Positions 29,659-60,883 of a stretch of 64,000 nucleotides of DNA are shown piece after piece. Source of the DNA: Candidatus Goldiibacteriota bacterium. Its GTDB lineage: Bacteria > Oederibacteriota > PGYV01. The stretch lies in contig JAFGWA010000017.1 in the NCBI GenBank assembly GCA_016937715.1, positions 3,227-67,226 on the forward strand. The letters are read 5' to 3'. Made by a program: the position numbers and the translations under genes. The notes beneath the pieces are model-generated. The model had not been told where the DNA came from. It searched no databases and saw only the letters and a list, made by a program, of their open reading frames with translations. Each line of letters opens with the position of its first letter. Positions within the stretch are counted from its first letter, which is position 1.

Positions 29659-29852
29659 TTTTTTATTTACTTCTGACCCTTATATCTTCCATGCATCCGT
29701 CTCTTGGTTTACCGGGGTTTGTTGTATATAGTGGCAGGCGCGCCTTTTAATATCGAGCCTATAATAAAATTGCTCGATATTATGCGCGGCAGTTGATTTG
29801 ATGTTTGTTTTTACTTCCGACCCTCAGACCCTCTGTGCATCTGTCTTTCAGC
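29659..29852. repeat. two direct copies of the GATGCACAGA-type intergenic repeat (29659-29708 and 29808-29852, minus orientation) flanking a 13-bp-stem hairpin (29751-29782)
   Basis: tttacttcTgaccct...tgcatccgtctcttgg versus tttacttcCgaccctcagaccctctgtgcatctgtctttcagc; hairpin AATATCGAGC-loop-GCTCGATATT in between. Confidence 0.6.
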
Positions 29853-29864
29853 TTAACAGCGGTT

Positions 29865-30060
29865 GGGTATAAACCTCGAAACTATCTCGGCAAGGGAGAG
29901 ATACCACTCGCCATAAACTGATGATAATGGCTCGGGTATAAATCATCTCTAAGCCTCGAAACTACCTCGGCAAGAGCGTGATACCACTCGCCATAAACTG
30001 ATGATAATGGCTCGGGTATAAATCATCTCTAAGCCTCGAAACTACCTCGGCAAGAGCTGA
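29865..30060. repeat. tandem direct repeat, unit about 80 bp x 2.6 copies (69-bp, 80-bp and partial 47-bp units)
   Basis: Units begin with GGGTATAAA at 29865, 29934 and 30014. Units 2 and 3 are identical over the region inspected; unit 1 lacks the 11-bp TCATCTCTAAG insert. Confidence 0.85.
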
Positions 30061-30061
30061 T

Positions 30062-31261
30062 TTACCAGCCGGCTCCTGTAGATTTATTAGGGACAGCGCG
30101 GATTGGGGTTGCAACGGTTTCAGGTGACGAAGAAACCGGTGTAGGTGTTGGTTGTACTATATTGGCGGAAACTTTGCCACCTTTTTTTACAGTGGCTTTT
30201 ATTGGTGCCGCTGTGGTTTGTAATGTTTTAACGGCAACAGGCTGTGAAACTGTTTTATTGCCGGGAACTACAGCAGGTAAAGTTTTATCCGCGGACGCGG
30301 GTGTCGGCGTGTATGTAGGCAGAGGCGCGTCAAGAATTCTGTGCAGCCAATAAGGCGAGACGCCGCCGCTTTCATCAGAAATTTTCATCCTGTTGGTGCC
30401 ATCGGGCCTCATTATCCATATTTCAGGAATATATTTATTATTTATGAAATTTACAAAAACAATATCTTTGCCGTCATAAGAATACACCGGGGAATGGCTT
30501 TTTCCGTCAAGGGTGATATTTTCTGTTTTTCCGGAAGCGATATCATGTACGGCAATGTTTGATGTTTCGCCTTCAAAAAGCGTAAAGACAATTTTTTTGC
30601 CGTCCGGCGAAAAAGAAGGTGAAGCGGCCTTTTTATTGGTATAGTTTGTAAGGCGTGTTTCGTTTATAAAATCTTTTTCCCTTGAATATATATTGGAAGT
30701 ATTTTCATTTTCTATTTTTATGTAAATAAGTTTGTTGTCTTTTGACAGCGAGGGGGAAACGCAATCGTGCGTATCTGTCAGCGCCACGGGGTTATACCCG
30801 TCCCTGTTTATCTTCCAGATATTTTTGCGGCGCGAATAAATTATTTCTGACGAATCGGCTGTCCAGCCGCCGGGATTGCTCATTTTTAAATTTGTGGTGT
30901 CGCCTTCAAGGGAATCCCGGTCAAAAGTAATCTGCGTTGCCCTGTTATTTTTTAAATTACCGGTCCAAAGGTTAAAGTACCCGTTTTGATGCACCCAATA
31001 CGCGATTGTCCAGCCGTCCGGAGAAACACTTGGAAACCATTTGCTTTTTCCGTCAGGAAAAAGTTCCTGTTTTGAATTTCCGTCGCGGTCAATCCAGTAA
31101 AGCGAACCGTTTGATGTATATATTATTTTATCAAGCGCCGGCACCGCTGTAGGTACAGGCGTGGGTACGGCTTTAATCTCTGTCTTTTTTTTCTTACAGC
31201 CGCTGAAAGGAATAATTACGCACAGCAAGAGAATGAAGATTATGAAAATTTTATTTTTCAT
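30062..31261 (-). CDS. TolB-like beta-propeller lipoprotein with a Pro/Thr-rich C-terminal tail
   Basis: Lipobox signal MKNKIFIIFILLLCVIIPFSGC; PD40/WD40-like repeats (DG..IAYW, PSFSPDGKKIVF); C-terminal TPTPASADKTLPAVVP... low-complexity tail. Confidence 0.6.
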   Translation of the reverse strand: MKNKIFIIFILLLCVIIPFSGCKKKKTEIKAVPTPVPTAVPALDKIIYTSNGSLYWIDRDGNSKQELFPDGKSKWFPSVSPDGWTIAYWVHQNGYFNLWTGNLKNNRATQITFDRDSLEGDTTNLKMSNPGGWTADSSEIIYSRRKNIWKINRDGYNPVALTDTHDCVSPSLSKDNKLIYIKIENENTSNIYSREKDFINETRLTNYTNKKAASPSFSPDGKKIVFTLFEGETSNIAVHDIASGKTENITLDGKSHSPVYSYDGKDIVFVNFINNKYIPEIWIMRPDGTNRMKISDESGGVSPYWLHRILDAPLPTYTPTPASADKTLPAVVPGNKTVSQPVAVKTLQTTAAPIKATVKKGGKVSANIVQPTPTPVSSSPETVATPIRAVPNKSTGAGW

Positions 31262-32340
31262 TTAAAACTGCCTTTCGCCGGTGTGGTATCGGCTATTTCT
31301 GAAGGTGCCGGAAAAAACGCATTAAAGAAAGAAGTAAGTTTTTTCTTTTTGCCGGTTTCATATTCAAGGCTGTATATATCGTTGTTTTCAACATAAAAAA
31401 TAAATTTACCGTCTTTTGAAAAAACAGCGCAGCAGCCGGGCTTGTCTGTTACTTTAAGGTCTGCTTTGGGGTCTTTCTGCTGTTTTGCCTCTGTTTTATT
31501 AATATAAATAACCGGTATGTTTTTTTCTGTATTTTTAATGTAGGAAAAAACCTGTTGTTTGGCTTCAAGTTTTGCCCTGTTGAATGAAACTTCATTTTTA
31601 AGATAATTTGTGGAAAACAGTGTTTTTATACCAAGCCCCGATGCGTTTATTGTTTTTATTCCGGCATTGTCGGAATAAATAATTGAATCGTCGCCGGACC
31701 AGTCAAATGAAGGAAATATTATTTCACTTTTAGCCAGTTGTATTTCGTTTGTAAGGTCTGCGTTCATCACAAAAATTCCGCTGTTATTTTTTGTTTTTTC
31801 CCTGAAGAAAACAAATTTTGCGTAATTTGGAGACAGTTTAAAAGAAGTGACATCGTGGTGCTGTGTCAATGCGGACTGCGAAATGCCGATTTTATCAACT
31901 GACCAGATATTTCCATGCATTAAGTAATAAATATTTTTGCCTTCTTTGTCCCACTGTATAAGCCCTCTGTTGTAAAGGTCGGGGATTACTTTGTTTGAAG
32001 TATATTTTGTAAGGGCTTCCTGCCTGGTACCGTCAGTATTCATTATATATAAATTTACAGAGCCGCTGCGGTCGGAAAACATTGCTATTTTGTTTCCTGT
32101 GGGGTCAACGCAGGGAGACCAGTTATTTCCGGAGGATGTAAGTATTTCTTTTTTTGAACCGTCTTCATTCATAATACCAATCTGGTATTTACCCTTGCTG
32201 TCCTGCATAACAAAATAGAGGGCTTTTTTAAAAACGGGCTTGGCATCTTCTTCTATAAGGGCAGAAACAGGCATAGTAAAAATAAAGGATATTATTAATA
32301 AGGAAAGTACTGCAAATAAATTGCCTTTTTTTACGCCCAT
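31258..32340 (-). CDS. TolB-like beta-propeller periplasmic protein
   Basis: Signal peptide; PD40-like repeats (SPCVDPTGNKIAMFSDRSG, SVNLYIM); translationally coupled to the downstream paralog. Confidence 0.55.
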   Translation of the reverse strand: MGVKKGNLFAVLSLLIISFIFTMPVSALIEEDAKPVFKKALYFVMQDSKGKYQIGIMNEDGSKKEILTSSGNNWSPCVDPTGNKIAMFSDRSGSVNLYIMNTDGTRQEALTKYTSNKVIPDLYNRGLIQWDKEGKNIYYLMHGNIWSVDKIGISQSALTQHHDVTSFKLSPNYAKFVFFREKTKNNSGIFVMNADLTNEIQLAKSEIIFPSFDWSGDDSIIYSDNAGIKTINASGLGIKTLFSTNYLKNEVSFNRAKLEAKQQVFSYIKNTEKNIPVIYINKTEAKQQKDPKADLKVTDKPGCCAVFSKDGKFIFYVENNDIYSLEYETGKKKKLTSFFNAFFPAPSEIADTTPAKGSFK

Positions 32341-32415
32341 TTTTACCTCATAAGGTATATTTTCCTTTATAATATATGCTTTTTATGGAAGTGTCAACAG
32401 TAAATAAGGGTTTTA

Positions 32416-33444
32416 TTACTTAATAAACATGGCATCGCCGTATGAAAAAAACCTGTATTTATTTTCAATGGCCGATTTATAGGCCTTTTTAGCGTTTTTT
32501 TCTCCGGCAAACGCGTAAACAAGAGCAAGAAGCGTTGTTTTTGGAAGGTGAAAATTGGTTATAAGGCAGTCTACGGCCTTAAACTGATAACCGGGGTATA
32601 TATATATGGAAGTATTGCTTTTGCCGCTTTTTATTTTATTTTGGCTGTACGCGCTTTCAAGAGCTCTTAAAGAAGTGGTGCCTACGGCTATAATTCTGCC
32701 GCCTGATTCTTTCGCGGTATTTATGGCTGCCGACGTTTCAGGTGAAATTTCATATTCTTCATTATGTATTTTATGTTCCCTTATATCAGGTTCTGTTACC
32801 GGCGCGAAAGTTCCAAGCCCGGTATGCAGGGTTATATATTCAACATACACTCCGGATGTTTTTATCCTGTTCAACAGGGCGGGGGTAAAATGTAATCCTG
32901 CTGTTGGCGCGGCTGTAGCGCCGTCTTTTCTGGCATATACGGTCTGATACCTTTCCCTGTGAAAAGCGCTGTCATCTTCTTTAATATAAGGCGGAAGAGG
33001 AATTTTTCCGTGTTTTTCAAATGCTTTTAATATTTCTTCCCTGCCTGCGGAAAAATAAACTGCAACTGTTTTGCCGAATTTTTTTTTGATTAAAGCTGAA
33101 ATATTTCCGTCAAGCAAAACCGTATCGCCTTCTTTTACCCTGCGTGAATTTCCCATTATGGCTTCCCAGTAATTTTCTTTAAATGAAAGCAAAAGCAGTT
33201 CTATGGCGGCGCCTGATTTTGTCCTGCCGTAAATGCGCGCGGGTATAACGCGGGTATCGTTTAAAACAAGGCAGTCGCCGGGCTTTAAATATTCCGTAAT
33301 GTTTTCAAACAGCCTGTGTTCAATCACGCCGGTTTTTTTATCTGTTACAAGAAGGCGCGATTTGTCCCTTTCCGGGCTTGGAACCTGCGCGATTAATTCC
33401 TGCGGAAGTTCATAATCATAGTTTTCAAGTTTGAATTTGTCCAT
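32416..33444 (-). CDS. queA: S-adenosylmethionine:tRNA ribosyltransferase-isomerase
   Basis: N-terminus MDKFKLENYDYELPQELIAQVPSPERDKSRLLV plus full-length QueA homology. Confidence 0.9.
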   Translation of the reverse strand: MDKFKLENYDYELPQELIAQVPSPERDKSRLLVTDKKTGVIEHRLFENITEYLKPGDCLVLNDTRVIPARIYGRTKSGAAIELLLLSFKENYWEAIMGNSRRVKEGDTVLLDGNISALIKKKFGKTVAVYFSAGREEILKAFEKHGKIPLPPYIKEDDSAFHRERYQTVYARKDGATAAPTAGLHFTPALLNRIKTSGVYVEYITLHTGLGTFAPVTEPDIREHKIHNEEYEISPETSAAINTAKESGGRIIAVGTTSLRALESAYSQNKIKSGKSNTSIYIYPGYQFKAVDCLITNFHLPKTTLLALVYAFAGEKNAKKAYKSAIENKYRFFSYGDAMFIK

Positions 33445-33633
33445 GCGTGAAATTATAGCATATAAGATTGTTTTTTAACCTCCCGTTTAATACATGTTTA
33501 AGGTGAAATATAGTCGTTGAAACATTAAATCTATAAAGCTGCGGTAAAAACTGATAAATCTTTTTTAAGAAAAGCAGGCAGGGCGGCTGTTTATTTTTAA
33601 GGTTTTTTCAGATGAGAGGGTATAAAAATTTTA

Positions 33634-34746
33634 TTAAACCGGCAGGCCTTCATCGTTATATTTTTTTGTGTCCGTAAGTTCGCCGTTTTCATAGCGCCCT
33701 TCAAGTTTCACTTTTCCGTTTTCAAAATAACTTGTATAATTGCCCGCGGGTATGCCTTCTTCAAAATACTGTTCCACCTGAACCTGACCGGAAGGGTAGT
33801 ACATTTTATAAAGCCCCTGCTGCTTGCCGTTATTATACGCGCCGGCCACTTTAAGTTTTCCTGATTTATAGTACAGTTTATAAAATCCGTGTTCCTGCCC
33901 GTTTAGGTATTCGCCTTCAACTTTAAGTTCTCCGGTTTCATAAAAAAGTTTATAGGGCCCTTCTTCAAGCCCTTCTTTATATATACCCTGCAGTTTAATA
34001 CCGCCGTTTTCATAATATAAAGTAAAGTTTCCGTTTTCTTTTCCGTTTACATATTCACCTGTCATTTTTGGCATGCCGTTTTCGTAATATTTCTGCACAG
34101 GCCCGTTTTTAACCCCGGCAGCATAAGCCTCTTTTACCATTATATTTCCATTTTCATAATAAAGTTTGTGAACCCCGTTTTCTTTGCCCTGAATATAAAT
34201 GCCTTCAAGCTTGACGGCGCCGGAAGGGTAGAACAGTTTAAACACACCTTCTTCTTTTCCGTATTTGTAAGACCCGTCTAACTTTTTATTTCCGTTCTCA
34301 TAAAAAGTTATAAAGCTTCCGTGTTTAATTCCGTCCCTGTAGGTTTCGTTAAGTTTAAGGATACCGCCTTCATAATAAGTGCGGTTAACGGCTTCGCCTG
34401 TAAGTTCGTTTATGGCGCGTTCATTTTTTAGGCTGCCGTCCGCGAACCAGCTTTGATAAGGCCAGGTAATTTCGCCGTCCTGATAGGTTTCCTGTTCGGC
34501 CGGTTTGCCGTTGTCATAATACCAGGTAACAGTTCCGTCTTTTATGGAATTATTTTCATAGGTTATTTTAGCCGCCGTCTTTATGCCGGACTGGTCTATT
34601 TTTACGCATGCGGTTTCACCCGATATTGTTTCGCCTTCTTTTAAAACACTGCCGTCCGGGTTAAAAGTCCAGACAGCCGCAAGGACGGTGGTATCCTTAA
34701 AAAATTTCTGCTGCTGTCCCTGACGGATGCTTTTAAAAGTTATCAT
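33634..34746 (-). CDS. MORN-repeat protein (YwqK/COG2849-like)
   Basis: At least 12 tandem repeats of about 23 aa with the pattern G.(Y/W).YYENG.(L/K)..G.Y.NG...G. Confidence 0.7.
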   Translation of the reverse strand: MITFKSIRQGQQQKFFKDTTVLAAVWTFNPDGSVLKEGETISGETACVKIDQSGIKTAAKITYENNSIKDGTVTWYYDNGKPAEQETYQDGEITWPYQSWFADGSLKNERAINELTGEAVNRTYYEGGILKLNETYRDGIKHGSFITFYENGNKKLDGSYKYGKEEGVFKLFYPSGAVKLEGIYIQGKENGVHKLYYENGNIMVKEAYAAGVKNGPVQKYYENGMPKMTGEYVNGKENGNFTLYYENGGIKLQGIYKEGLEEGPYKLFYETGELKVEGEYLNGQEHGFYKLYYKSGKLKVAGAYNNGKQQGLYKMYYPSGQVQVEQYFEEGIPAGNYTSYFENGKVKLEGRYENGELTDTKKYNDEGLPV

Positions 34747-34856
34747 TTTTCACCGTGTTATTTTTTTTCATAATTCATAATATCATACAGCGTGTTATTT
34801 TCAATTAAGAAAAAAAAGAGTTTTCCGCGGACGCCTCCTTATGCAATAATGTTTTT

Positions 34857-35579
34857 ATGAACTTACAAGCCGCTTTAAAAAAGCATCTAGAGGGCAGTCC
34901 TGCCGTTATAAACGGAGAGATGTTTAATAATATACTCATTTACTCAAATGAGTTAATTGAAAAAAACAGGCAGTTTAATCTTACCGCAATTACCGCCCCC
35001 GAAGAAGTTGCAGTAAAACATGTCCTTGATTCCGTACACCTGTTTGGGGCGATGTCAGGCGATGTTCCGGTTTCGCTTGCGGATGCCGGAACCGGCGCGG
35101 GTTTTCCTGGTATCATAGCCGCCATATTAAATGAAAAAATTAAAGTTACCCTTGTTGAATCAAACGGGAAAAAAGCAAATTTTTTAAACGGTGTAATTAA
35201 TAAACTAAAACTTAATAACGCAGTTGTAATTCAAAGCCGCAGTGAAGAATGTTCCCGCGATAAAAAAATGCGTCAAAAATTTTCAGCAGTGACGATGAGA
35301 GCGTTTGCGGAATTTAAAACAGCAATGGAACTGACATCTGCGCTGTGCGCGCTTAAAGGAAAAATTTATTACTTTGCAAGCGCGGATCAAGTTAAAGAAA
35401 TTAAACGCGAAGGAAATATTTATAACGAACTGAAATTAAAATTTGAAAAAATCTATGATTACACTTTACCGCTTGATCTTGGAAAAAGGCACATTGTAAT
35501 TTTAAGCAGGACAGGGGACACGCCTAATTGTTATCCAAGAACATTTCAAAAGATAAAAATTAAACCTATCAGCTTCTAA
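34857..35579 (+). CDS. rsmG: 16S rRNA (guanine527-N7)-methyltransferase RsmG (GidB)
   Basis: GidB family: HVLDS, the SAM-binding motif DAGTGAGFPGI, and a length of about 240 aa. Confidence 0.85.
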   Translation: MNLQAALKKHLEGSPAVINGEMFNNILIYSNELIEKNRQFNLTAITAPEEVAVKHVLDSVHLFGAMSGDVPVSLADAGTGAGFPGIIAAILNEKIKVTLVESNGKKANFLNGVINKLKLNNAVVIQSRSEECSRDKKMRQKFSAVTMRAFAEFKTAMELTSALCALKGKIYYFASADQVKEIKREGNIYNELKLKFEKIYDYTLPLDLGKRHIVILSRTGDTPNCYPRTFQKIKIKPISF

Positions 35580-35597
35580 TTGTTCCACGTGGAACAA
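35580..35597. promoter_or_regulatory. parS site 1 (perfect TTGTTCCACGTGGAACAA)
   Basis: An 18-bp perfect palindrome whose 16-bp core TGTTCCACGTGGAACA fits the ParB-binding consensus tGTTnCACGTGnAACa. It lies immediately after the rsmG stop. Confidence 0.8.
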
Positions 35598-35921
35598 TTT
35601 AGATTATTACAAATCATTTTGTTAAAACTTTAATTTTTTCATAAACTTTCCGGAATATTTTCTTCTGATATATTTATATAATTTATCCGTTTAAGTCTCG
35701 TTAAAATATACTATTCTAAATAAAAATTATTAAGCAGATTGTATTTTTTAATAGAATAGATATTTATAGTCAGCAATACAGATTTCTTAATAATTAATTG
35801 AATCTGAATAAATTTATTACCTTATAGTCTGACTTAATAATATTTAAATATAGATATTTTGTTTTATCACGCTGATATATGTATTAATAAAATTTAATTT
35901 TCAAAGTTTTCAATTCAATCA

Positions 35922-35939
35922 TTGTTCTACGTGGAACAA
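35922..35939. promoter_or_regulatory. parS site 2 (one mismatch: TTGTTCTACGTGGAACAA)
   Basis: Single C>T change in the left half-site; the exact mirror image of site 3. Confidence 0.65.
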
Positions 35940-36062
35940 TGAGAAGTTAAATAAGAGAATACTATCCTTAAGAAATATATATAAGCAATGCCTGCTTATG
36001 GTAATAGTACCGCATATATAGCCGCGTAACTTAATTAAACATAAGCTGCTTAAACACACCTA

Positions 36063-36080
36063 TTGTTCCACGTAGAACAA
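36063..36080. promoter_or_regulatory. parS site 3 (one mismatch: TTGTTCCACGTAGAACAA)
   Basis: Reverse complement of site 2. Confidence 0.65.
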
Positions 36081-36348
36081 TCTTTTAAGTATGGCAATAA
36101 TCATATTTATACTATAAAAATATAAGATAATGAATCAATACCGGAGGATAAAAACACATGCTTAAGCGCCTTTTTTGGTATCTATTAAAATGTAAAATTA
36201 ACTGATATGTATTAAATAATTACAGCGTTACAAATTTATGGTTGTGAATGTTAATTACAATAACAAGCATAAATAAATGTTTTGATGCATAACAATATTA
36301 TCAGAGAAAATATAAAGTCAAAGCAATCAAACATTATAAATACGCAAA

Positions 36349-36366
36349 TTGTTCCACGTGGAACAA
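36349..36366. promoter_or_regulatory. parS site 4 (perfect TTGTTCCACGTGGAACAA)
   Basis: Perfect 18-bp palindrome, 88 bp upstream of the recF start. Confidence 0.8.
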
Positions 36367-36453
36367 CTGAAAATTCTATAAAAATATATGTCTTGAAAAA
36401 GATATTCTATTGGTGTATCTTTGTCTCAATAGAAATATATTTCCGGAGGCAGG

Positions 36454-37551: not shown

Positions 37552-37680
37552 CAAAATAGTTTTTATTACCGCAAAATTCCAAATTAACGCTTTGCGGAAA
37601 TTTTAAATAAGCCATAACAGTCATAAAAATCTTTAATTTATACGGCTCTTTCCCTTTTCCCCCCAAAAAAACTGCTGTTG

Positions 37681-37709
37681 TTGACCTTAATATACCGTTG
37701 TGATAATAT
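37681..37709 (+). promoter_or_regulatory. sigma70-type promoter of the HD-GYP/cyclase operon
   Basis: TTGACC (37681-37686), 17-bp spacer, TAATAT (37704-37709). The ORF-track GTG start at 37700 lies inside the -10 element, so the TTG at 37739 is the more plausible start. Confidence 0.55.
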
Positions 37710-37738
37710 ATATTTACGGTGTTTTAGCGGAGGTATTT

Positions 37739-41821: not shown

Positions 41822-41824
41822 CGC

Positions 41825-42645: not shown

Positions 42646-42647
42646 TA

Positions 42648-42676
42648 TTGACAAAATAACTGACAAAATATATAAT
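42648..42676 (+). promoter_or_regulatory. consensus sigma70 promoter (TTGACA-17-TATAAT) upstream of the cNMP-binding protein gene
   Basis: Perfect -35 TTGACA (42648-42653), exactly 17-bp spacer, perfect -10 TATAAT (42671-42676). Confidence 0.7.
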
Positions 42677-42711
42677 ACATAAGGATTAAAAAAAAGACGG
42701 GGGAAAATGAG

Positions 42712-45164: not shown

Positions 45165-45198
45165 GCCGCAGGTGAAAACCTGCGGCTTTTTTATTTTT
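45165..45198 (+). terminator. rho-independent terminator
   Basis: GCCGCAGGT-GAAA-ACCTGCGGC followed by TTTTTTATTTTT. A weaker hairpin (AACGCAATC-AAAG-GATTGCGTT) sits at 45037-45062, directly after the stop. Confidence 0.7.
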
Positions 45199-45288
45199 AA
45201 TCCAAACCCTGTTTATTTTTGGATTTAAGAAGTGGTAGACGCGGGTCTTCAGCCCGCGGACGTTGTATTTGTTGTATATCTTTTCTTC

Positions 45289-45321
45289 CATCCCTCTGAC
45301 CTTTTGTGCATCCGTCCCTTC
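45289..45321. repeat. copy of the GATGCACAGA-type intergenic repeat (minus orientation)
   Basis: ccatccctctgaccttttgtgcatccgtccctt is the reverse complement of aagggacggatgcacaaaaggtcagagggatgg. Compare 55582, 60751, 60850 and 29659/29808. Confidence 0.55.
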
Positions 45322-45702
45322 ATATTACATTGGTTGGGCATGTTTTTTCAGCACGCGCCGCAAATCGGTATTCTTGCGCCCAAATCAGTTTGAAATCACA
45401 GGTTTGTTAACGTCATTTGCGGCCGGGAGCTAGCGTCACATACGTATATGTCACCGATGCATTAAACAGATCCTGCCGGATACACACTATGTTAGGGCGG
45501 CGCGCACTGAAAAAACACACCCACCTTATGTTTGTTTTGAAGGTTTTATTTATGGGATAATTCAGGGGGGTTACGATATTAATTTCGTCCTGATGAATAT
45601 AAATTATTTTTGCGCGGCGTTTTTATAAAGAACACGTACAGTTTTTTTTGTATTTGATTTTATAAAAGTGAATTAATATTAAAAGAAGTATTTACTAAAA
45701 AA

Positions 45703-47466: not shown

Positions 47467-47468
47467 TG

Positions 47469-49343: not shown

Positions 49344-49358
49344 GATAAGTCCTCCTTT

Positions 49359-50015: not shown

Positions 50016-50037
50016 TTTTATCAGCCCTTCTTTTTAT

Positions 50038-52116: not shown

Positions 52117-52188
52117 ATAACCACTTCCTTTGCGGAGTTAAATCCATAGTAATTATATATATAAATAGAACTTATGTCAAGTATTTAG

Positions 52189-52899: not shown

Positions 52900-52995
52900 G
52901 AATAAAGTATAGCAGAAATAATATGTATTGAAAATAGCGATTACATGGCATATAATTTAAAATATATCAATAAACCTGCATTCAGGGAGACGAAG

Positions 52996-55581
52996 ATGAA
53001 AAAAGCATTATTAACTTCTGTTCTTTCATTATTATTATCACTTCCATTATCCGCCGCAATTACCGGGATTGATATTACAATGACACCCGCAAATCCGGCG
53101 CCGGGCGATCCGGTTGTGGTTACGCTTTATTATTGCGCCAACGCTTATGAAGCGGCTAATTTTATTCTTGCCTTTACTAACACAAGCACTTTGCGCCCGG
53201 ATGATTCACCCGGTCAGGTTTATCTTGTAAGCAGCGCAGGTATTAATAATCCTTCAAATGCGACAGGCGGCGGATATCAGGTTGCGCAGCAGTCAGCCGC
53301 TTATTGCCAGACTTTAACATGGAATCTTACAGTCCCAGGCAGCCTTGAACCGGGGGATACAATTTATGTTATAGCCGCAGGAAGGGCATACGATGTAAGG
53401 TATGACAGCATGGACAGTTCGGATTCAGTAAGTTTTACGGTTCCGCTTCCGCCCGCATCCGCTTCTTTGACAAAAACTGCGGAAGCAACAACTGTAATTC
53501 CGGGGGGAAATGTTTTATACACGCTTAATTACAGTTATGTAAATTCAAACAGCCTTGTAATTACCGATATGGTTCCTCCAAACTGCACTCTTTTGCAGAT
53601 AAGCCCGGGAGGCACAAACAGCGGAACTGCCGCAGGTTCATCATTATCATGGACTCTTCCTGCTACGGGAAAAAGAAAATCAGATATTGTATGGTTTCTT
53701 GTAAATGTGGACGCGGCTTTGGCTCCCGGCGCGACAATCAACAATTCCGCTGAATGGGCGCTGACAGACACTTTTAGTGCGGTTACAAACGGTATAAGCA
53801 ACGACACAACTGTGACGGTTATAAGGCCTTTTGCTTTTATAAAAAGCCAGCAACCCGTTACAGCACAGATGGGAGATACTGTAACTTATACCCTTAGCGT
53901 TTCTTTAACAGGTTACAGTCTTAATTTTTATGATTCTTTTGACACAAATCCTATAACCGGATATCATAATATCGGCGGGTCATGGAGCTGGATGAGTGAC
54001 GGCGCAGGAAGCGGATATTTGTATTCTCCATTGCAGTCTTCTTATCCGCAGTATTTAAGGGACACTCCTGTGGATTTTTGCGATGGTATTGTACAGGGCG
54101 ATATTTATGTGGGACCAGGAGGAAATGAAGACGGATTAATATCATTCAGGCACAGCAATACAAATCCGGCTCTTGCGTACGGTATCGGAGTTTCCGGAGA
54201 CCATCTTCCGGGAGACCTTTATCTTCAGAAAACAAATCCGGGAGTTGCGTTGCCATATTGCCCTGTCACATGGTGCAGCAACGCGCTGTCAGTAAGCGAC
54301 AGCAGGTGGTACACGGTTAAAGTTCAGGTAAACAGCCTGTCAGGCTATTCAACAGGGATTTGGGCAAAAGCATGGGCTAAGGGAGAACCCGAACCTGCGG
54401 CATGGATGATTGCCGTTACTGATACCGCAAACGCTACTTACACACAGATACCTGCGTGCGGATATGTGGGTTTTCAGGGGCATCCGGACAATTACAATTA
54501 TTATGATAATTTAAAAGTGATAAACGGAAATCCGATAGCATCCGGCGCTGTTATATTTGATACCGTGCCGGCGGAAATTACATATATTGATGGAACAGGC
54601 GCGCTTGCAGGCGTTCACGACGCGGCGGTTTATGATCCGGTTTCAGGTGTTGTAAGCTGGTTATACCCGGGGCTTCAGACGGATAAAGCAGACATCCTAA
54701 TATGGAGCGGGGTTATTAATTCATGCGGCCAGATAACAAATACAGGCGCGATAAAAGCGAATGATTTTAATCCTATAGTAAATTCAAACAGCGTTATGTA
54801 TGACATACCGTGCGGTACGCCTTCAATTACGCCGACTATTACCCCCACTTCCACAATTACAATTACAGTTACGCCCACAATTACAGTTACGGCAACGCCC
54901 ACAATGACTCCCACGCCAATTCTTCCGGTTCTTGTAATGTCCAAATCAGTCGCGCCGTCAAGCGCGGCCACAGGCGATACAATAACCTATACAATAAGGG
55001 CTTCCAATGTTACAGGGCTTATTGCCGCTGATAATGTAATTATCTGGGATACTCTGCCGCCAAAACACACTTATATAGCGGGCGGTACTTATGACGCGGT
55101 AAACAGGGTTGTGTCTTTCAGCACGGGAACCATACCTATGGGCAGTTATATTGATTATTCGTTCACTGCGATGCTTGATGATTCAATTAATAAAAATGAA
55201 AAATTTTATAATACCGCGCTTTCCAACTGCGACGCCGCGTCTTCCGCTTTTGTTTCAAACCAGACAACGCTTTCGGCAATTGTGCCCGACCTTGAACTTA
55301 AAAAAGACGTAACATATCCAAATCCGACCGATGGAGAGGCAATAATTGTTTTTCATCTGTCAGTGCGCGCGGATGTCACAATTAAAATTTTTACAATATC
55401 CGGTGAGACGATAAGAAAGATAGACGGTATAAACGGTGTCAAGGGAGTAAATAAAACATTGTGGGACGGCTTAAATGACGCGGGTGAACGTGTGTCATCC
55501 GGAGTTTATATTTATAAGATAGATGCCGTTAACGGGGACGAGAAAAAATACGTCTTTGGCAAAATGGCGGTTATGAAGTAA
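52996..55581 (+). CDS. large secreted surface protein with DUF11-like repeat domains, a Thr/Pro-rich linker and a T9SS-type C-terminal sorting domain (start chosen at the internal Met with RBS)
   Basis: Signal peptide MKKALLTSVLSLLLSLPLSAA (GGGAG RBS 6 nt upstream). The linker is PSITPTITPTSTITITVTPTITVTATPTMTPTP. The C-terminal about 90 aa (YPNPTDGEAIIVFHL...IKIFTISGE.IRKI....G.N...WDG.ND.GE.VSSGVYIYKI) matches the Por_Secre_tail / FlgD-Ig-like CTD. Confidence 0.7.
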   Translation: MKKALLTSVLSLLLSLPLSAAITGIDITMTPANPAPGDPVVVTLYYCANAYEAANFILAFTNTSTLRPDDSPGQVYLVSSAGINNPSNATGGGYQVAQQSAAYCQTLTWNLTVPGSLEPGDTIYVIAAGRAYDVRYDSMDSSDSVSFTVPLPPASASLTKTAEATTVIPGGNVLYTLNYSYVNSNSLVITDMVPPNCTLLQISPGGTNSGTAAGSSLSWTLPATGKRKSDIVWFLVNVDAALAPGATINNSAEWALTDTFSAVTNGISNDTTVTVIRPFAFIKSQQPVTAQMGDTVTYTLSVSLTGYSLNFYDSFDTNPITGYHNIGGSWSWMSDGAGSGYLYSPLQSSYPQYLRDTPVDFCDGIVQGDIYVGPGGNEDGLISFRHSNTNPALAYGIGVSGDHLPGDLYLQKTNPGVALPYCPVTWCSNALSVSDSRWYTVKVQVNSLSGYSTGIWAKAWAKGEPEPAAWMIAVTDTANATYTQIPACGYVGFQGHPDNYNYYDNLKVINGNPIASGAVIFDTVPAEITYIDGTGALAGVHDAAVYDPVSGVVSWLYPGLQTDKADILIWSGVINSCGQITNTGAIKANDFNPIVNSNSVMYDIPCGTPSITPTITPTSTITITVTPTITVTATPTMTPTPILPVLVMSKSVAPSSAATGDTITYTIRASNVTGLIAADNVIIWDTLPPKHTYIAGGTYDAVNRVVSFSTGTIPMGSYIDYSFTAMLDDSINKNEKFYNTALSNCDAASSAFVSNQTTLSAIVPDLELKKDVTYPNPTDGEAIIVFHLSVRADVTIKIFTISGETIRKIDGINGVKGVNKTLWDGLNDAGERVSSGVYIYKIDAVNGDEKKYVFGKMAVMK

Positions 55582-55610
55582 AGAGGGACGGATGCACAGA
55601 TGGTCGGATG
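55582..55610. repeat. copy of the GATGCACAGA-type intergenic repeat (plus orientation)
   Basis: agagggacggatgcacagatggtcggatg begins immediately after the stop codon. Confidence 0.55.
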
Positions 55611-55777
55611 CTAGGCTGAAGATAAATACACAAATACCCCTAAGTTCTATTTATGGTTTATGGGATATCAAGCTATTCGCTGATTATAAGCCATAGCCTA
55701 TAAATACAGATTAGATAAAAAAGTAATAATCAAAATATAAAACCGAAAAAACCATTTGTATCAAAAAGGAAAATCTG

Positions 55778-56782
55778 ATGAAAGAAAAAACATGTATCGC
55801 GCTTTTTTCGGGCGGTCTTGACAGCATGATTGCCGTAAAACTGCTTGAAAAACAGGGGATAAAAGTCATACCCGTTAATTTCAATATAGGCGTATTTTTT
55901 AAAAAATATATCAGGGAAAACGGGGAATTAAAATATAATAAGCCGCTTCCCGCGGGAATGAAAGTTTTGGTTGTTGATATTACAAAAGATTTTCTTAACA
56001 TGGTTAAAAATCCCCCTCACGGCTACGGCAAAAATATGAACCCGTGCATAGATTGCAAAATAATAATGATGCGTAAAGCAAAAGAGATGATGCAGGAACT
56101 TGGAGCCGGGTTTGTAATAACTGGAGAAGTGCTGGGGCAGCGCCCTATGACACAGAATTCACATTCAATTAATATGATAAAAAACGAATCCGGGCTTGAA
56201 GGGTATTTACTGCGTCCGCTGTCCGCAAAATTAATGGAACCCACAGAACCGGAAAAACTTGGCTGGGTGGACAGGGAACAGCTTTTAGATATAGAAGGAA
56301 GAAACAGGCAGCAGCAGATTAAGCTTGCTGTTGAGTTTGGAATTACGGATGTTATGGAAACGCCGGGCGGCGGATGCCTTTTAACCGATGAACATTACGC
56401 GGCAAGATTAAATGACCTTATACAGCACAATAAAGAAAAAGAGATAACGGAGCGGGATATGTTTCTGCTATCCGCCGGAAGGCATTTCAGAAAAAACGGC
56501 ATAAAGTTTATTATAGGAAGGCACAACGCGGATAATGAAAAATTGGAACAGGTAAAAGAAGGGGCAATGGTATTTGAAGTAATGGATATTCCCGGCCCGC
56601 TTGTCCTTACTTTTGACAGCCCTGATGAAGAGACAATAAGAGATATAGCCGCGTTTTCCGCCGGTTATACAAAGTTAATGGATAAAGACGAAGTAGCTGT
56701 CAAAATTATTAAGGATAATAATGAAAGGGTTATAAAAGTAAAACCGATAAACAGGGAAGAAGCGGAGAAATATAAAGTATAG
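55778..56782 (+). CDS. PP-loop ATP-pyrophosphatase of the ThiI/MnmA tRNA-thiolation type, lacking a THUMP domain
   Basis: PP-loop SGGLDS at residues 11-16; NPCIDCK; VITGEVLGQRPMTQ (like ThiI VTGEALGQVSSQT); RPLSAK...; catalytic-Cys-like PGGGCLL. A C-terminal extension of about 140 aa has unknown function. Confidence 0.6.
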   Translation: MKEKTCIALFSGGLDSMIAVKLLEKQGIKVIPVNFNIGVFFKKYIRENGELKYNKPLPAGMKVLVVDITKDFLNMVKNPPHGYGKNMNPCIDCKIIMMRKAKEMMQELGAGFVITGEVLGQRPMTQNSHSINMIKNESGLEGYLLRPLSAKLMEPTEPEKLGWVDREQLLDIEGRNRQQQIKLAVEFGITDVMETPGGGCLLTDEHYAARLNDLIQHNKEKEITERDMFLLSAGRHFRKNGIKFIIGRHNADNEKLEQVKEGAMVFEVMDIPGPLVLTFDSPDEETIRDIAAFSAGYTKLMDKDEVAVKIIKDNNERVIKVKPINREEAEKYKV

Positions 56783-56857
56783 CGGCTCGTTAGTTTGGTT
56801 TAGGTTTGGTAGGCGCACCCTTTCAGGGTGCGGCAGTTGATTTTAAATAAAATTCAA

Positions 56858-56880
56858 TTAAGCAATTAAGCAGAAGCGAA
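56858..56880. repeat. TAAGCAATTAAGCAGAAGCGAA intergenic motif, copy 2
   Basis: Exact 23-nt match to the copy at 60815-60837; followed 20 bp later by a TATGGGATA motif and then the NYN gene start. Confidence 0.5.
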
Positions 56881-56949
56881 ACAGATCTCGGTTTTTTGTA
56901 TATGGGATAGAGGGATACGGGTTAATTTTTATTAAAAAGGCAGGGATAC

Positions 56950-57333
56950 ATGAAAATTATTATTGACGGGTACAATTTAATGTACAGGGTGCGGTTCAAG
57001 GGGGTTACCCTTGAACAGAAACGTGAAGAGATGATGGATATGATAAAGGAATTTCTTGCGTTAAATCCAAATGAAGTGACGGTTGTGTTTGACGCGTCGC
57101 GTTCAATTTCCAACCACCGCGGGCATCAAAGATTCGGCGATATAAAAGCTGTTTTTTCCGGGCCCGGGGAATCTGCCGATGATATAATAGAAGAGATGAT
57201 AAGAAACAGGACAGGCAAGGCAAAAGACCATATGGTTATTTCCAGCGACAACAGGCTTATTAAGTACGCCATAGACAATCACTTCAAATCAATGACTTCG
57301 GATGAATTTGCGGAATACCTTGAACAGGATTAA
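56950..57333 (+). CDS. NYN-domain (YacP/Rae1-like) predicted ribonuclease
   Basis: MKIIIDGYNLMY...VTVVFDA....ADD.I....SDN motif arrangement typical of the YacP-like NYN domain. Confidence 0.55.
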   Translation: MKIIIDGYNLMYRVRFKGVTLEQKREEMMDMIKEFLALNPNEVTVVFDASRSISNHRGHQRFGDIKAVFSGPGESADDIIEEMIRNRTGKAKDHMVISSDNRLIKYAIDNHFKSMTSDEFAEYLEQD

Positions 57334-57354
57334 AACAATAAGCAGGAGGGTGTT

Positions 57355-58419
57355 ATGAAAAAATTTTTAATTATTGTGGTTATGCTTATAACAGCGTCTT
57401 TTGTTTTTGCCGCGGAGGACGACACTAAAAAATACGAAGATTCCTGGCTTATTCTTCCGCTGCCTTTATACTCCGAAGAAACAAGTTTAAAAGGGATAAT
57501 AACAGGGGCGTATTTTTACAATAAAAAACCGGATACTTTCTCGTCCAACATACAGTTGTACCTTTCGTACAGCTTAAAAAATCAGGTATCTGTTGAAGAA
57601 GAAGGGTGGCATTACTGGGATAATAATGAATACAAGCTGTACCACAACTCTTTTTATAAGAAATACCCTGATACTTTTTACGGGACAGGAAACAGCACAG
57701 GCGATGAAGACGCGGAGAAAGTTACATTTCAGATGTTAAAGTTTAAGGGTGAGTTTCATAAAAAAATCGCCGGAGTTCTTTACGGCGGGGTAAGGCTGGC
57801 ATTTGACAGTTTTGTCCTTCTTGAAGCGGAAAAAGGAGGCTTTATAGATAATAATATTTTTTACGGCAGCAGGGGCGGGTCATTTTTTTCGCAGGGTGTT
57901 GTTCTCTCTTATGATTCCAGGGATAATTCGCTGTATGCCATGGACGGGATTTATTCTTCTTTATACTGTGACTATTACGGGTTTGGCGCCGAGGAAGAAA
58001 ACAGGTTTTTAAAAATGGATTTTGATTACAGGCAGTATTTTAAAATTGCGGATAATCAGTCAATTGCCGCGGAATTTTTTACTGGAATAATATCGGGAAA
58101 TCCGCCTTTTCAGCTTATGGAGCAGTTTGGCGGCGATCATAAAATGCGCGGGTATTTTTACGGCAGGTACCGCGATAAATGCATGAGCTTTGTGCAGGCC
58201 GAATACAGGATAATGCCGTGGGAGCGTGTGGGTTTTGCCGTGTTTGCCGGAGCAGGAGATGTGTATCGGGATTCTCCCGCTGATATGAACGTTAAGTTCG
58301 CGGGCGGCGCGGGTGTAAGGATAGGCCTTGTGCCGGAAGAACGCGCCAATTTAAGGATTGACTTAGGCTACGGCCGCGACGGCCTTGCGTTTATCTTCTA
58401 CGCGTTTGAGGCGTTTTAG
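57355..58419 (+). CDS. outer-membrane beta-barrel protein (hypothetical)
   Basis: Signal peptide MKKFLIIVVMLITASFVFAA; alternating aromatic/hydrophobic strands; the C-terminus ends in ...YAFEAF (terminal Phe). Confidence 0.5.
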   Translation: MKKFLIIVVMLITASFVFAAEDDTKKYEDSWLILPLPLYSEETSLKGIITGAYFYNKKPDTFSSNIQLYLSYSLKNQVSVEEEGWHYWDNNEYKLYHNSFYKKYPDTFYGTGNSTGDEDAEKVTFQMLKFKGEFHKKIAGVLYGGVRLAFDSFVLLEAEKGGFIDNNIFYGSRGGSFFSQGVVLSYDSRDNSLYAMDGIYSSLYCDYYGFGAEEENRFLKMDFDYRQYFKIADNQSIAAEFFTGIISGNPPFQLMEQFGGDHKMRGYFYGRYRDKCMSFVQAEYRIMPWERVGFAVFAGAGDVYRDSPADMNVKFAGGAGVRIGLVPEERANLRIDLGYGRDGLAFIFYAFEAF

Positions 58420-58479
58420 AAATATATTTTAACTGTTGTATATAAGGGTTTTTAATAGTTTGATTCAAAAGAGGAATTA

Positions 58480-59289
58480 ATGAAAAAAGTTTTAATAGTA
58501 AGTTTTTTTACGTTTTTTAGTATCTGTGTTTTTGCGACGAATACAGAAGTTAAATATAAGTCAACTTGTGTCAAAGAAACATCATATCATTCATCAAATA
58601 ATAAAATTAATTTTAATGCAAAATCCGGTTATAAAGAAGAATATTTTGATTCAAACGGGATAAAAAGAATTGAAATCGTAAATTTTTCTCCGGATTTCTG
58701 GTATGAAAAATATTTTGATGCTGACGGTAATATATACAAATCAAAGGACAGGGAAGGTACTTTTTATTATGAAATGACAGAGGAAAAAGACAGTTTAATG
58801 AAAACAACCATCAAAAAAGATGAAGCCGGAGAGGTTATTGAGACCCTTATAACTATATATGACAAAAAAGGAAAAATAAAAGAACAATCCCGTGCTGATA
58901 ATCAAGGCAATACGATAAAAAGCTTTTTTTCGGAGTATAAAGAAGAGGAATATACAATTGACAGTAATGGGAATTCTGTTTTGTCAGAGTATTGTACAAT
59001 AGAAAAATTTAAAAAAGATAATTTTGTCTACATTGAAAAAAATTTAATACATGACAGGATGAGTGTTCGCGACGTGGAAAAGTATGATGGTAACAGACTG
59101 ATAAATTCAATTAGTGTGTTTTTTGGAATGTTGAAAGACATTTCATGTCAAACTAATTATTATTATGATACAGAAGGGCGTTTAGAACGTTCGGAACAAC
59201 TTGATTTAAACGGTGATTTAGATATTGCCAGTATTTTTGAGTATTCATTCTGGGATGATTCCACATTAAAAGAAGATAAGAAGTATTGA
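58480..59289 (+). CDS. secreted YD/MORN-like repeat protein, very AT-rich (hypothetical)
   Basis: Signal peptide MKKVLIVSFFTFFSICVFA; repeated motifs of the (F/Y)D.(N/D)G..... type (FDSNGIKRIE, FDADGNIYKS, IYDKKGKIKE, NYYYDTEGRLE). Composition is noticeably more AT-rich than its neighbours. Confidence 0.4.
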   Translation: MKKVLIVSFFTFFSICVFATNTEVKYKSTCVKETSYHSSNNKINFNAKSGYKEEYFDSNGIKRIEIVNFSPDFWYEKYFDADGNIYKSKDREGTFYYEMTEEKDSLMKTTIKKDEAGEVIETLITIYDKKGKIKEQSRADNQGNTIKSFFSEYKEEEYTIDSNGNSVLSEYCTIEKFKKDNFVYIEKNLIHDRMSVRDVEKYDGNRLINSISVFFGMLKDISCQTNYYYDTEGRLERSEQLDLNGDLDIASIFEYSFWDDSTLKEDKKY

Positions 59290-59409
59290 AATAAAATTTC
59301 AATCCGCCTGCAAGAAATTATGTTGTTATCTGTTGACTTTTTATACTTTGATATATATACTTAGGTCTGCCTAAATATTAGGCAGACCTAAATAATTTAT
59401 GGAGATGCC

Positions 59410-59847
59410 GTGAACAAAGACGCGCAAAAGGCTTTTGATATGCTTGTGGATATAAGCGACAGGATAAGAAAAAGCCGTAAAATAAGCATATTTAAAGGGG
59501 AAATTAAACAGTTAAACCTTGGGCAGACTTTTACCCTTCAGCTGCTGTTTGATTCCGGCAGAAAAACAATGGGGGAGCTTGCGAAAGCCGCGGGTATAAA
59601 AATGCCAAGCATGACAGAAAGTATAGCCCGCCTGGAAAAACTTGGGTATGTTGAAAAGAAAAGGGACAAGAAGGACAAAAGAAAAGTTTTTGTGGAGTTA
59701 TCCGAACGAGGAAAAAAAATAATGAAAAAAACAAGAGATATAAATCTTGGGTATCTTGGGATGTTTTTTTCAATGATAAGCGGCCGTGAAAGGCAAAATG
59801 CCATGGAGCTGCTTAAAAAAATTCAGGGGTTGCTGAAAAAATTATAG
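59410..59847 (+). CDS. MarR-family transcriptional regulator
   Basis: A winged HTH (MGELAKAAGIKMPSMTESIARLEKLGYVEKKRDKKDKR) in a 145-aa protein, directly upstream of the efflux genes. Confidence 0.8.
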   Translation: MNKDAQKAFDMLVDISDRIRKSRKISIFKGEIKQLNLGQTFTLQLLFDSGRKTMGELAKAAGIKMPSMTESIARLEKLGYVEKKRDKKDKRKVFVELSERGKKIMKKTRDINLGYLGMFFSMISGRERQNAMELLKKIQGLLKKL

Positions 59848-59858
59848 GCGGAGGAAAT

Positions 59859-60752
59859 ATGCATTCAAAAGCAAAAAGATGGGCGTTGATAATAATAGCC
59901 GTGCTTGGCGCGATAATACTTTTTCAGATAATTAAAAAAGTAACCCGCGCGGGTGAAAAACTGTCAGAAACGGTTTATGACGTAAAGGCGGTTAAAGCGG
60001 TAAGGACTGATATTAGGGAAAGTATAAGCATAAGCGGCATTGCCGAAGGCAACCCGCAGATAAAAGTATATTCTCAGGTACCGGGAAAGTTTGAACGTAA
60101 TGCAGTGTCAGAGGGCAGCTTTGTAAACAAAGATGATACGATAATTTACATAAACAGGGATATTGTGGGCATGGACTATCAGCTTGCTAATGTAATGGCG
60201 CCGGCAGCGGGGATAGTGACAAAAATATATGTCACGGATAAAGGCGCGTTTGTGACGCCGCAGTACCCTGTGGCAGAGATTGCAAATCCGGACAAAATAA
60301 AAGTGGTATTAAGCATTGGGGAAGAAGATATGATAAAAGTAAAAGCCGGGCAGACAGCGGAAATTTCCGCAGCTTACGGAGAGAAGAAAATATTACAAGG
60401 CAGTGTATCATCTGTCACCCCGTTTATAGATAAGGACACAATGGCAGGGACAATAATTATAAGAGCGGATAATCCTGAAAGGCAGATAAAGCCCGGTATG
60501 TCCGTTAATGTGACAATTTACGGGCAGCACAGGCAGGGGATAATGCTTCCGGAAAACGCGGTGCTGCTTGGGGAAAGCCGGTCATACATTTATATCAATG
60601 ACAACGGCCGCGCGAAAATGGCGGATGTAAAAACAGGATACATTGAAGGTGATAATATTGAAATAACGGAAGGCATTAAGGAAGGCGATATTGTGATAAC
60701 CGAAGGCAATTTTAAATTAAATGAAGGAAATCTTATAAAGATAAAAGAATGA
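59859..60752 (+). CDS. efflux RND periplasmic adaptor (membrane fusion protein, HlyD family)
   Basis: N-terminal TM anchor and biotinyl/lipoyl-like hairpin and beta-barrel regions; the gene order MarR-MFP-RND. Confidence 0.8.
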   Translation: MHSKAKRWALIIIAVLGAIILFQIIKKVTRAGEKLSETVYDVKAVKAVRTDIRESISISGIAEGNPQIKVYSQVPGKFERNAVSEGSFVNKDDTIIYINRDIVGMDYQLANVMAPAAGIVTKIYVTDKGAFVTPQYPVAEIANPDKIKVVLSIGEEDMIKVKAGQTAEISAAYGEKKILQGSVSSVTPFIDKDTMAGTIIIRADNPERQIKPGMSVNVTIYGQHRQGIMLPENAVLLGESRSYIYINDNGRAKMADVKTGYIEGDNIEITEGIKEGDIVITEGNFKLNEGNLIKIKE

Positions 60753-60883
60753 GGGACAGAGGGACAGATGCACGGAAGGTTGGAAGGATAAAAAAGTCAG
60801 CACAGATTAAGCTATAAGCAATTAAGCAGAAGCGAAATAAAAGTTTTTGCCGACCATCCGAACATCTGTGCATCTAACCATCC
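60751..60883. repeat. MITE-like element: imperfect inverted copies of the GATGCACAGA-type repeat (60751-60790 and 60850-60883) flanking the TAAGCAATTAAGCAGAAGCGAAA motif (60815-60837)
   Basis: Left arm gagggacagagggacagatgcacggaaggttggaagg. Right arm ccgaccatccgaacatctgtgcatctaaccatcc is the reverse complement of ggatggttagatgcacagatgttcggatggtcgg. The left arm starts at the MFP stop codon. Confidence 0.55.

Follow-up and report, generated by a model that had tools for sequence, protein, structure and literature searches.

What are the short repeats that recur between the genes of a 64,000-nucleotide (nt) stretch of Candidatus Goldiibacteriota DNA (GenBank assembly GCA_016937715.1, contig JAFGWA010000017.1, positions 3,227 to 67,226; the whole stretch is hereafter the window), and why do several of them begin at or next to a stop codon? 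The repeat, picked out earlier in a sequence-only reading of the window and here named module A, is an array of octamers, often found as inverted pairs and in the company of further modules (B to F). The answer to which we incline is that A is the boundary module, comparable to a terminal inverted repeat (TIR), of a lineage-specific, non-autonomous and mosaic family of intergenic elements resembling miniature inverted-repeat transposable elements (MITEs) and bacterial interspersed mosaic elements (BIMEs), a family which would also expand by slippage.

Anatomy and occurrence of the octamer array

Alignment of the copies in one orientation reveals that A usually consists of a GA leader, the units GGGACGGA, TGCACAGA, GGGTCGGA and again GGGTCGGA, and a tail AGTAAAAAC. 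The units are 8 nt long and in strict phase, with a generic form (g), DGGWCRGA, and a special, nearly invariant form (T), TGCACRGA, which occupies position 2 or 3 of the array. A census of arrays with at least three in-phase units in 328 kb, comprising the window and related loci (numbered with the prefix L), recovered 103 arrays, 66 of them distinct, against 0 in shuffled sequence; a motif search of the same DNA gave 107 matches, again against 0 in shuffles. The layouts include gTgg (27 arrays), gTg (14) and ggTg (6), as well as pure g-arrays, with 3-23 units. GA lies directly 5' of the first unit in 58-60 of 62 arrays, A beginning (C)NGA followed at once by GGGAC; where the base before the leader is T, a TGA stop codon is formed, as at 60750. 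Taken singly, A copies are unstructured (folding z-scores of +1.8, -1.8 and -0.2) and fold no better than shuffles, which bears out the earlier statement that the unit itself is not a palindrome.

All six sites listed in the sequence-only reading are present in the window, while its estimate of at least seven copies comes down to six arrays, seven being reached only by including an additional GGGACAGA unit that heads the array at 60753. Its 27-mer, allowing up to 3 mismatches, matched three window sites against 0.00 expected (100 shuffles), and the remaining three were recovered by looser searches and alignment; the motif count is thus far above the shuffled control both in the window and in the 328 kb of related DNA. 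Of the 6 occurrences of the anchor GATGCAC in the 64 kb, 5 lie within copies. As had been claimed, the copies are exclusively intergenic and occur in both orientations (-,-,-,+,+,- along the window): all fall within four spacers flanked by Pfam-supported genes, in a window of about 40% G+C of which 10% is non-coding (by simple ORF calling with Pfam support; ORF, open reading frame). That the copies are parts of a coding frame is ruled out, as none falls within a Pfam-supported ORF and orthologous spacers lack them.

The first spacer holds a direct pair on the minus strand: a decayed array (29666..29705) with units reading ..GACGGA, TGCATGGA, AGATATAA and GGGTCAGA, followed by an AGTAAA tail, and a g-T-g-g array (29807..29849, units 29816-29847) with the GA leader and the AGTAAAAAC tail. 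As the earlier reading had it, this pair flanks a hairpin, at 29733-29799. The second spacer carries a g-T-g-g array at 45280..45321 (-; units 45287-45318), just 3' of an E element on the same strand. A single g-T-g array lies at 55582..55611 (+; units 55585-55608), its first unit 3 nt past the TAA (55579-55581) that ends the gene for an 878-aa DUF11/CLIPPER protein. In the fourth spacer, two arrays form the composite inverted-pair element A-B-A' (60751..60883), predicted to fold as a single long hairpin, between the stop of a membrane-fusion (MFP) gene and the start of an RND pump gene. Its left arm is a g-g-T-g array (60751..60796, +; units 60753-60784), and the GA of the MFP stop TGA (60750-60752) doubles as the conserved GA leader; its right arm is a g-T-g-g array (60843..60883, -; units 60849-60880) with the 5' end toward the RND gene. 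The contact of both the 55.6 kb and 60.8 kb copies with stop codons, and the inversion of the latter pair, had been correctly described. As the RND gene begins at 60949 (+), minus-strand ORFs called to the right of this position are spurious and the inverted pair lies inside a MarR-MFP-RND operon. The sequence of this spacer is found identically in two Logan contigs.

The number of units is variable: at one locus four short-read assemblies carry 23, 21, 20 and 19 units, and pure octamer arrays of 11-23 units are found at L034 1406-1589, L038 1225-1392, L040 5184-5343 and L043 700-851, and also at L016 1-88 and L014 9790-9885. Several contigs end inside such arrays, which may be true variable-number tandem repeats or assembly artefacts; the sense strand of an array lacks stop codons in any frame and hence gives rise to spurious ORFs. 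The variation at one locus (19-23 units) and the pure arrays of 11-12 units elsewhere are what would be expected if the copies were independent microsatellites generated in place by slippage, with no dispersal. However, this is contradicted by the non-repetitive T unit, the GA leader and the tails that are common to different loci and genomes, as also by the outward polarity described below (29 to 0), which slippage does not predict. Together with the alternative that A is a simple intrinsic terminator, this explanation has next to no probability in our assessment: in the scanned stretches no terminator-like site, that is, no hairpin with a T-run, overlaps any A array or inverted-pair hairpin, and genuine terminators occur elsewhere (e.g., 45165-45186), in agreement with the earlier suggestion that A is not a simple terminator.

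The family has a narrow distribution. An exact-pattern scan of one genome per species gave eight matches, all in the unclassified metagenome-assembled genome (MAG) JAKQNO01 except one chance match in high-GC DNA, and a metagenome scan added 32 further stretches, nearly all from activated-sludge and digester assemblies; L010 and L042 were left out as chance matches in high-GC DNA. Phages and plasmids gave no A match in BLAST searches, viral contigs no match in pattern scans for A and D, and tblastn no genes that the window has in common with other loci bearing A. In the literature, the core of A searched as a string returned unrelated primer and aptamer matches only. Scanned with Rfam 15, the window has no match at the gathering threshold, and permissive scans of two regions gave sub-threshold matches, none of which reached its family's gathering score.

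Outward polarity, pairing and turnover at gene junctions

The 5' end of A is invariably turned outward. Among the 66 distinct arrays, an inverted partner within 300 nt lies on the 3' side for 29 and on the 5' side for 0; the GGGAC ends of inverted pairs are always outside, and the opposite geometry is never seen. A complete element has two A arrays in inverted orientation at a distance of 100-300 nt, with their GGGACGGATGCAC ends facing outward and 37-225 nt without an ORF between the arms. Such elements occupy gene junctions, as a rule reaching from 0-15 nt past a stop codon to about 20-35 nt short of the following start codon. The same end faces the genes: a gene boundary lies within 40 nt of the 5' end in 23 cases and of the 3' end in 1, and 16 arrays begin 0-15 nt (median 6) past the stop codon of a co-oriented gene, a positional pattern that extends the stop-codon contacts noted in the window. 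In pairs between co-directional genes, provided that the start call is clean, 19-32 nt separate the other arm from the next start codon, which keeps room for a ribosome-binding site. Inverted pairs are predicted to form long hairpins of -42 to -69 kcal/mol (z -5.8, -9.1 and -7.3), the window pair at 60751-60883 having -42.4 kcal/mol and z -5.8. Core mismatches average 0.17 in paired and 0.44 in unpaired arrays, a comparison biased by the sampling of loci.

Unpaired arrays behave differently according to their place. Five of the six that abut genes are in the sense orientation, adjoining the stop codon, whereas those deep in spacers, mainly in the A-F-E arrays discussed below, are antisense to co-directional neighbours in 20 cases and sense in 4, although the tandem units among them are not independent. 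A universal sense orientation to transcription is ruled out by these deep-spacer arrays. A G-quadruplex as the selected feature was likewise rejected, since GGG and AGG units swap freely and four G3 runs are not conserved.

The orientation of the gene-abutting arrays, together with the C-rich, G-poor and unstructured complement of a single array, which is like a rut (Rho utilization) site, might suggest an orientation-specific Rho-loading or anti-antisense device, in which arrays past stop codons keep antisense transcripts out of the 3' ends of genes. We give this little credence: its basis is purely compositional, many arrays have the opposite orientation, the C-rich arm of pairs is sequestered in the hairpin, and convergent genes are served by ordinary intrinsic terminators such as that at 45165-45186.

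An explanation in terms of re-initiation may also be considered, with GAGGGACGGAUG providing a Shine-Dalgarno sequence and an AUG, and the consensus encoding MHRGSEGRK before a stop, such that ribosomes which terminate at the preceding stop codon would restart and the insertion would not uncouple translation, a proposal made earlier for mycobacterial interspersed repetitive units (MIRUs). Several copies do have an in-frame stop after 7-9 codons, namely those at window positions 29841 (-) and 60770 (+) and both arm types of the MAG. However, each added 8-nt unit shifts the frame, and the peptide and its stop are hence not conserved; further, pure g-arrays have no AUG and the start-proximal arm of a pair is antisense. 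This, too, we consider very improbable.

The origin of the copies is best judged from orthologous junctions. Syntenic loci were found via the flanking ThiI-like protein, and L025 via the metagenome scan; their DNA identity to the window is 80-87% for L044/L045 and L046, 92% for L025, and about 70% for L050 (GCA_964417645.1) and L052, which belong to a set of more distant relatives (L047-L052, 68 kb). Even between the close relatives the modules differ. In the spacer after the DUF11 protein, where the window has A at 55582, A is absent in L044/L045, and L046 has a B-like module instead. Conversely, in the spacer between the ThiI-like and NYN genes, L044, L045 and L046 have A 1 nt past a TAG (arrays at L044 4149 and L046 4031) where the window has D at 56808, B and C being common to all. 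After the PD40 protein, L025 has the order A-F-E-A, and the window an 80-nt tandem repeat followed by A-D'-A (D' being the D-type hairpin at 29733).

In the distant relatives no module of the kit is found in the 68 kb of L047-L052, and only minimal spacers occur: between the MFP and RND genes lie 3 nt in L050 and 21 nt in L052, as against 196 nt in the window, and the ThiI-like and NYN genes overlap by 4 nt in L050 and are 9 nt apart in L052, as against spacers of 167 nt (window) and 214 nt (L044). The MFP has a conserved C-terminus and its stop codon a conserved position, which indicates that the extra DNA begins exactly at the stop codon. The differences between close relatives, and the absence of modules along with minimal spacers in distant ones, indicate that the copies are insertions at operon gene junctions. 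Given ancestral spacers of 0-20 nt, an insertion sparing both genes has no other place to go, and the tight fit to stop codons need not mean targeting. At the MFP-RND junction of L050 the RND ribosome-binding site (13990-14003) lies within the last MFP codons (CAGGAATAA AAA ATG); the end codons of the window MFP gene lack one (AAAGAATGA), and a new GGAG is found at the right end of the inserted DNA (60935-60948).

These data also bear on the possibility that A is primarily a host-selected, cis-acting RNA element, whose octamer array, especially the invariant GGAUGCAC unit, serves as the platform on which a lineage-specific RNA-binding protein docks, or as the site at which such an RNase cuts. 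The arrays would then set mRNA stability or the ratio of neighbouring cistrons, e.g., MFP to RND, and dispersal would be secondary. Consistent with this, arrays lie 0-15 nt past stop codons with the next ribosome-binding site left intact, paired arms give strong predicted hairpins within operons, GATGCA does not vary in any window copy, and A and D fill the same stop-proximal slot in sister genomes. Additionally, wobble-compatible arm mismatches number 32 on the mRNA-sense strand against 16 on the antisense strand, a count that includes noisy flanks. Against it, presence is not conserved at orthologous junctions even at 80-92% identity, the syntenic outgroups manage without the elements, the unpaired arrays deep in spacers are mostly antisense (with the above caveat of non-independent tandem units), and there is no Rfam match. 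On balance such a primary role appears possible but unlikely.

Companion modules and other features of the window

Modules were mapped across loci by blastn-short. B (TTAAGCTATAAGCAATTAAGCAGAAGCGAAA; 60807..60837, +) lies inside the inverted pair of the window, and C, with a 7-nt period (ATTTATGTGATATGGGATAAAAG; consensus ATTTATGGGATATGGGATAA), at 60893..60915 (+), between the composite element and the RND ribosome-binding site. D (GGTAGACGCGGGTCTTYAGCCCGCGGCAGTTG) is a nearly invariant, GTAG-tagged hairpin of the repetitive extragenic palindromic (REP) type that begins GGTAG; window copies are found at 45234..45265 (+; GGTAGACGCGGGTCTTCAGCCCGCGGACGTTG), 20754-20785 (-) and 56808-56843 (+), with others in L012, L013 and L032, and in L012 and L032 they form clusters of alternating orientation. 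The D-type hairpin between the two direct A copies (29733..29799, +; GGCAGGCGCGCC...GCGCGGCAGTTGATTT) has a second palindrome nested in its loop, an arrangement seen in two copies, this and L032 7914-7987. F consists of ATTCGAN repeats and is the only module of the kit not found in the window.

The modules combine into mosaics: A-D'-A at 29.7 kb, an order also seen in L013/L037; D-A-E-C at 45.3 kb; A followed by C at 55.6 kb; and A-B-A'-C at 60.8 kb. The spacer between the ThiI-like and NYN genes holds a D-B-C mosaic (56808..56921, +), and that at 20619..20858 has B (+), D (-) and C (+) without an A array. B is itself reiterated (L009 5946-6204; L014 2156-2410 and 12874-13308), either in tandem (five copies, period about 45 nt) or with alternating orientation; these arrays precede a 526-aa gene and follow one of 961 aa. 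In the window, the PD40-repeat gene is followed, directly past its stop, by an 80-nt tandem repeat (29870-30061; 2.4 copies, 94% identity), of which L025 carries only the first ~32 nt, once; the repeat unit holds a stretch resembling the 3' stem of E.

E is a repeat of about 200 nt with a 31-bp closing stem and a conserved interior, represented in the window at 45328..45529 (-) and elsewhere at L008 1995-2193 and 2288-2486 and in L004, L011, L025, L027, L032, L034 and L035. An A array follows about 11 nt after E in nearly every copy of the related loci. Across 12 distinct copies, canonical pairs make up 94.9% of the pair cells on the strand co-oriented with A and 81.3% on the other, with 100 and 12 G.T cells, respectively. 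Two-sided pair changes number 8 against 4.3 in shuffles (1 of 500 shuffles being as high), and the covariation score exceeds that of all 500, although, the copies being related, this modest covariation is no more than suggestive. These data indicate that E folds as a single strand, either as RNA or as a single-stranded DNA (ssDNA) intermediate; candidate identities are a structured RNA of a new kind and an ssDNA that folds as an intermediate of transposition. E has no Rfam match, and a consensus scan found no sigma-70-like promoter upstream of it; terminator and promoter consensus scans of four window spacers and one A-F-E array gave no signal in A, E or F.

A bolder synthesis would make the mosaic more than selfish DNA and see in the octamer arrays platforms for a lineage-specific RNA- or ssDNA-binding protein, and in E a new multi-copy structured RNA or the folded ssDNA intermediate of a new HUH-like mobilisation, the two being inserted together precisely at stop codons and tuning the cistron ratios of operons. 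We regard this combination as improbable, leaving a minority chance that the arrays and E are functionally new.

Other features of the window lie apart from these modules. Five copies (0.04 expected) of an 18-nt perfect palindrome, TTGTTCCACGTGGAACAA, occur at 35580, 35922, 36063, 36349 and 37513, four of them within the AT-rich, 874-nt spacer that separates gidB from a RecF/SMC-like gene and the fifth at the 3' end of the latter; it is probably the operator of a dimeric regulator. The region 13147-16256 contains dnaN (13147-14256, -) and dnaA (14677-16092, -), with DnaA boxes that are perfect at 14458, 16049 and 16071 and near-perfect at 16123 and 16136, and the GC skew here changes from negative to about zero or positive; these features together indicate that the window probably spans the replication origin. 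A replication-strand bias of A was rejected, as all window copies lie on one side of dnaA/oriC and yet have the orientations -,-,-,+,+,-.

Mobilisation and comparison with known systems

How might such elements have spread? If A is the boundary module of a mobile, MITE- or BIME-like family, comparable also to the extra-palindromic motifs of BIMEs, its 5' end, (C)NGA followed by GGGAC, would mark the outer edge of the element, and its 3' end would face inward to a cargo of B, C, D and E. New copies would stem from transposition in trans or from recombination among dispersed ones, and the number of units would shift locally by slippage. Within an operon the element would be transcribed and its arms would pair into a long intercistronic hairpin in the mRNA, which could block 3' exonucleases or serve as a processing site, as in REP/BIME elements; this would be a side effect rather than the reason for which the elements exist.

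Several points weigh against this reading. The main gap is the machinery: a search for a REP-associated tyrosine transposase (RAYT) or other cognate transposase found none, 0 of 336 ORFs in about 330 kb having both HUH and YxxNP motifs by a crude motif test covering a small fraction of these genomes. Similarly, no outward-facing A pair encloses a transposase in the related loci, which represent a small genome coverage, and no autonomous element with the same ends was seen there. No direct repeat indicative of target-site duplication was detected at the flanks of L003, L006 or window 60751/60883, the edges being too imprecise to exclude one of 2-3 nt, and the right-hand edges of the insertions are not sharply delimited. 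The A-F-E tandem arrays of 290-nt period in L008 and L031 have internal A copies, which fit a strict terminal-repeat role less well. The copy number of A-F-E, one in L004 and two in L031, comes from short-read assemblies, and these differences, like those in unit count, could be assembly artefacts. Finally, transcription of the copies is assumed from their operon context.

In Pfam searches with ten proteins beside large mosaics, the sole transposase was of the IS110 family, in L032, with ends unrelated to A. Its gene (8258-9292, -) lies within L032 8013-9410, bounded by 22-nt inverted sequences (TTTAAACGCCCTGTCTGGGGTC), beside a split D module. In other bacteria, REP sequences are known targets of the IS110 family.

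The family adds a well-delimited set of repeats, from an uncultured sludge and digester lineage, to the class of REP, BIME and MITE elements. Its design is unusual, with ends made of a phase-locked octamer microsatellite, strict outward polarity and insertion exactly at operon gene junctions. In practical terms, the arrays break short-read assemblies, create spurious ORFs and could serve as strain markers through their unit number. Should they change cistron stability or ratio (MFP to RND, for instance), the elements would allow regulation to vary rapidly among close strains.

How, then, does the family compare with known systems? Bacterial MITEs such as Correia/NEMIS of Neisseria are intergenic elements of 100-300 nt with inverted termini, often co-transcribed and forming mRNA hairpins, which differ in presence or absence between strains. 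The A-bounded elements resemble them in having terminal inverted repeats around a non-coding unit, a size that fits the 100-400 nt of MITEs and presence/absence polymorphism at orthologous sites. Unlike Correia/NEMIS, they show no visible TA-type target-site duplication, their ends are built of tandem 8-mers, and single ends and internal A-F-E tandems are common; no parent insertion sequence is known for them. The pneumococcal BOX elements are intergenic and modular, of the form A-B(n)-C with a variable internal 45-nt boxB and a predicted stable structure. Modularity, intergenic location, variable subunit number and predicted stable structure are common to both families; however, the sequences are unrelated, the units are 8 nt as against the 45 nt of boxB, and the variable part is here the terminal module. 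MIRUs are direct tandem units of 40-100 nt that lie between the cistrons of operons, and their small ORFs share the frame of the neighbouring genes. Like them, the A elements are intercistronic, touch or overlap stop and start codons and vary in copy number, but A arrays have no frame logic. Integron attC sites, in which an inverse core RYYYAAC and a core GTTRRRY end an imperfect palindrome downstream of a cassette ORF, were rejected as a match, since the A-bounded elements end in GGGAC...GTCCC and are flanked by housekeeping genes whose synteny is conserved.

The short tandem heptamers of the STRR/TAACTGA type are uniform direct repeats confined to spacers, mostly just upstream of start codons (MacGregor 2015, PMC4679880). 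With these, A has in common a tandem word of 7-8 nt in spacers, repeated from a few to tens of times and abutting gene boundaries (PMC4679880). In contrast to them, it abuts stop codons, embeds a unique unit, pairs as inverted ends and travels with other modules, and both sequence and period differ.

Close analogues, too, are REP elements, BIMEs and the REPIN-RAYT system. REP-type elements carry an unpaired GTAG or CGTC tag at one end (PMC3733652, Di Nocera et al. 2013), and the inverted doublets known as REPINs fold into a long hairpin and show higher conservation than singlets (PMC3116915, Bertels & Rainey 2011). The cognate RAYT gene, which encodes a Y1/HUH transposase, is flanked by the repeats. 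Like these, the present family consists of high-copy extragenic mosaics with rapid turnover between relatives (PMC3116915, PMC3733652), its inverted doublets form long hairpins, and it lies mostly between co-directional or convergent genes, downstream of coding regions. The doublet organization typical of REPINs is found in 29 of the 66 arrays, in a single geometry, and the co-occurring D module, with its GTAG tag, palindrome and clusters of alternating orientation, is itself REP-like. Unlike a REP, the A unit is not a palindrome of 20-40 nt, a property which D does have, and A lacks the GTAG/CGTC tag, being instead a phase-locked octamer array of variable unit number. The sequence-only reading, which had likened the repeat to REP/BIME- or Correia-type elements, was thus right in kind, in that the family is a mosaic of dispersed repeats whose inverted pairs behave like the TIRs of miniature elements, while the octamer phase, the outward polarity, the GTAG-tagged REP-like hairpin and the status of the copies as insertions had escaped it. 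The A family is a new variant within the REP/BIME/MITE class and not a new kind of system.

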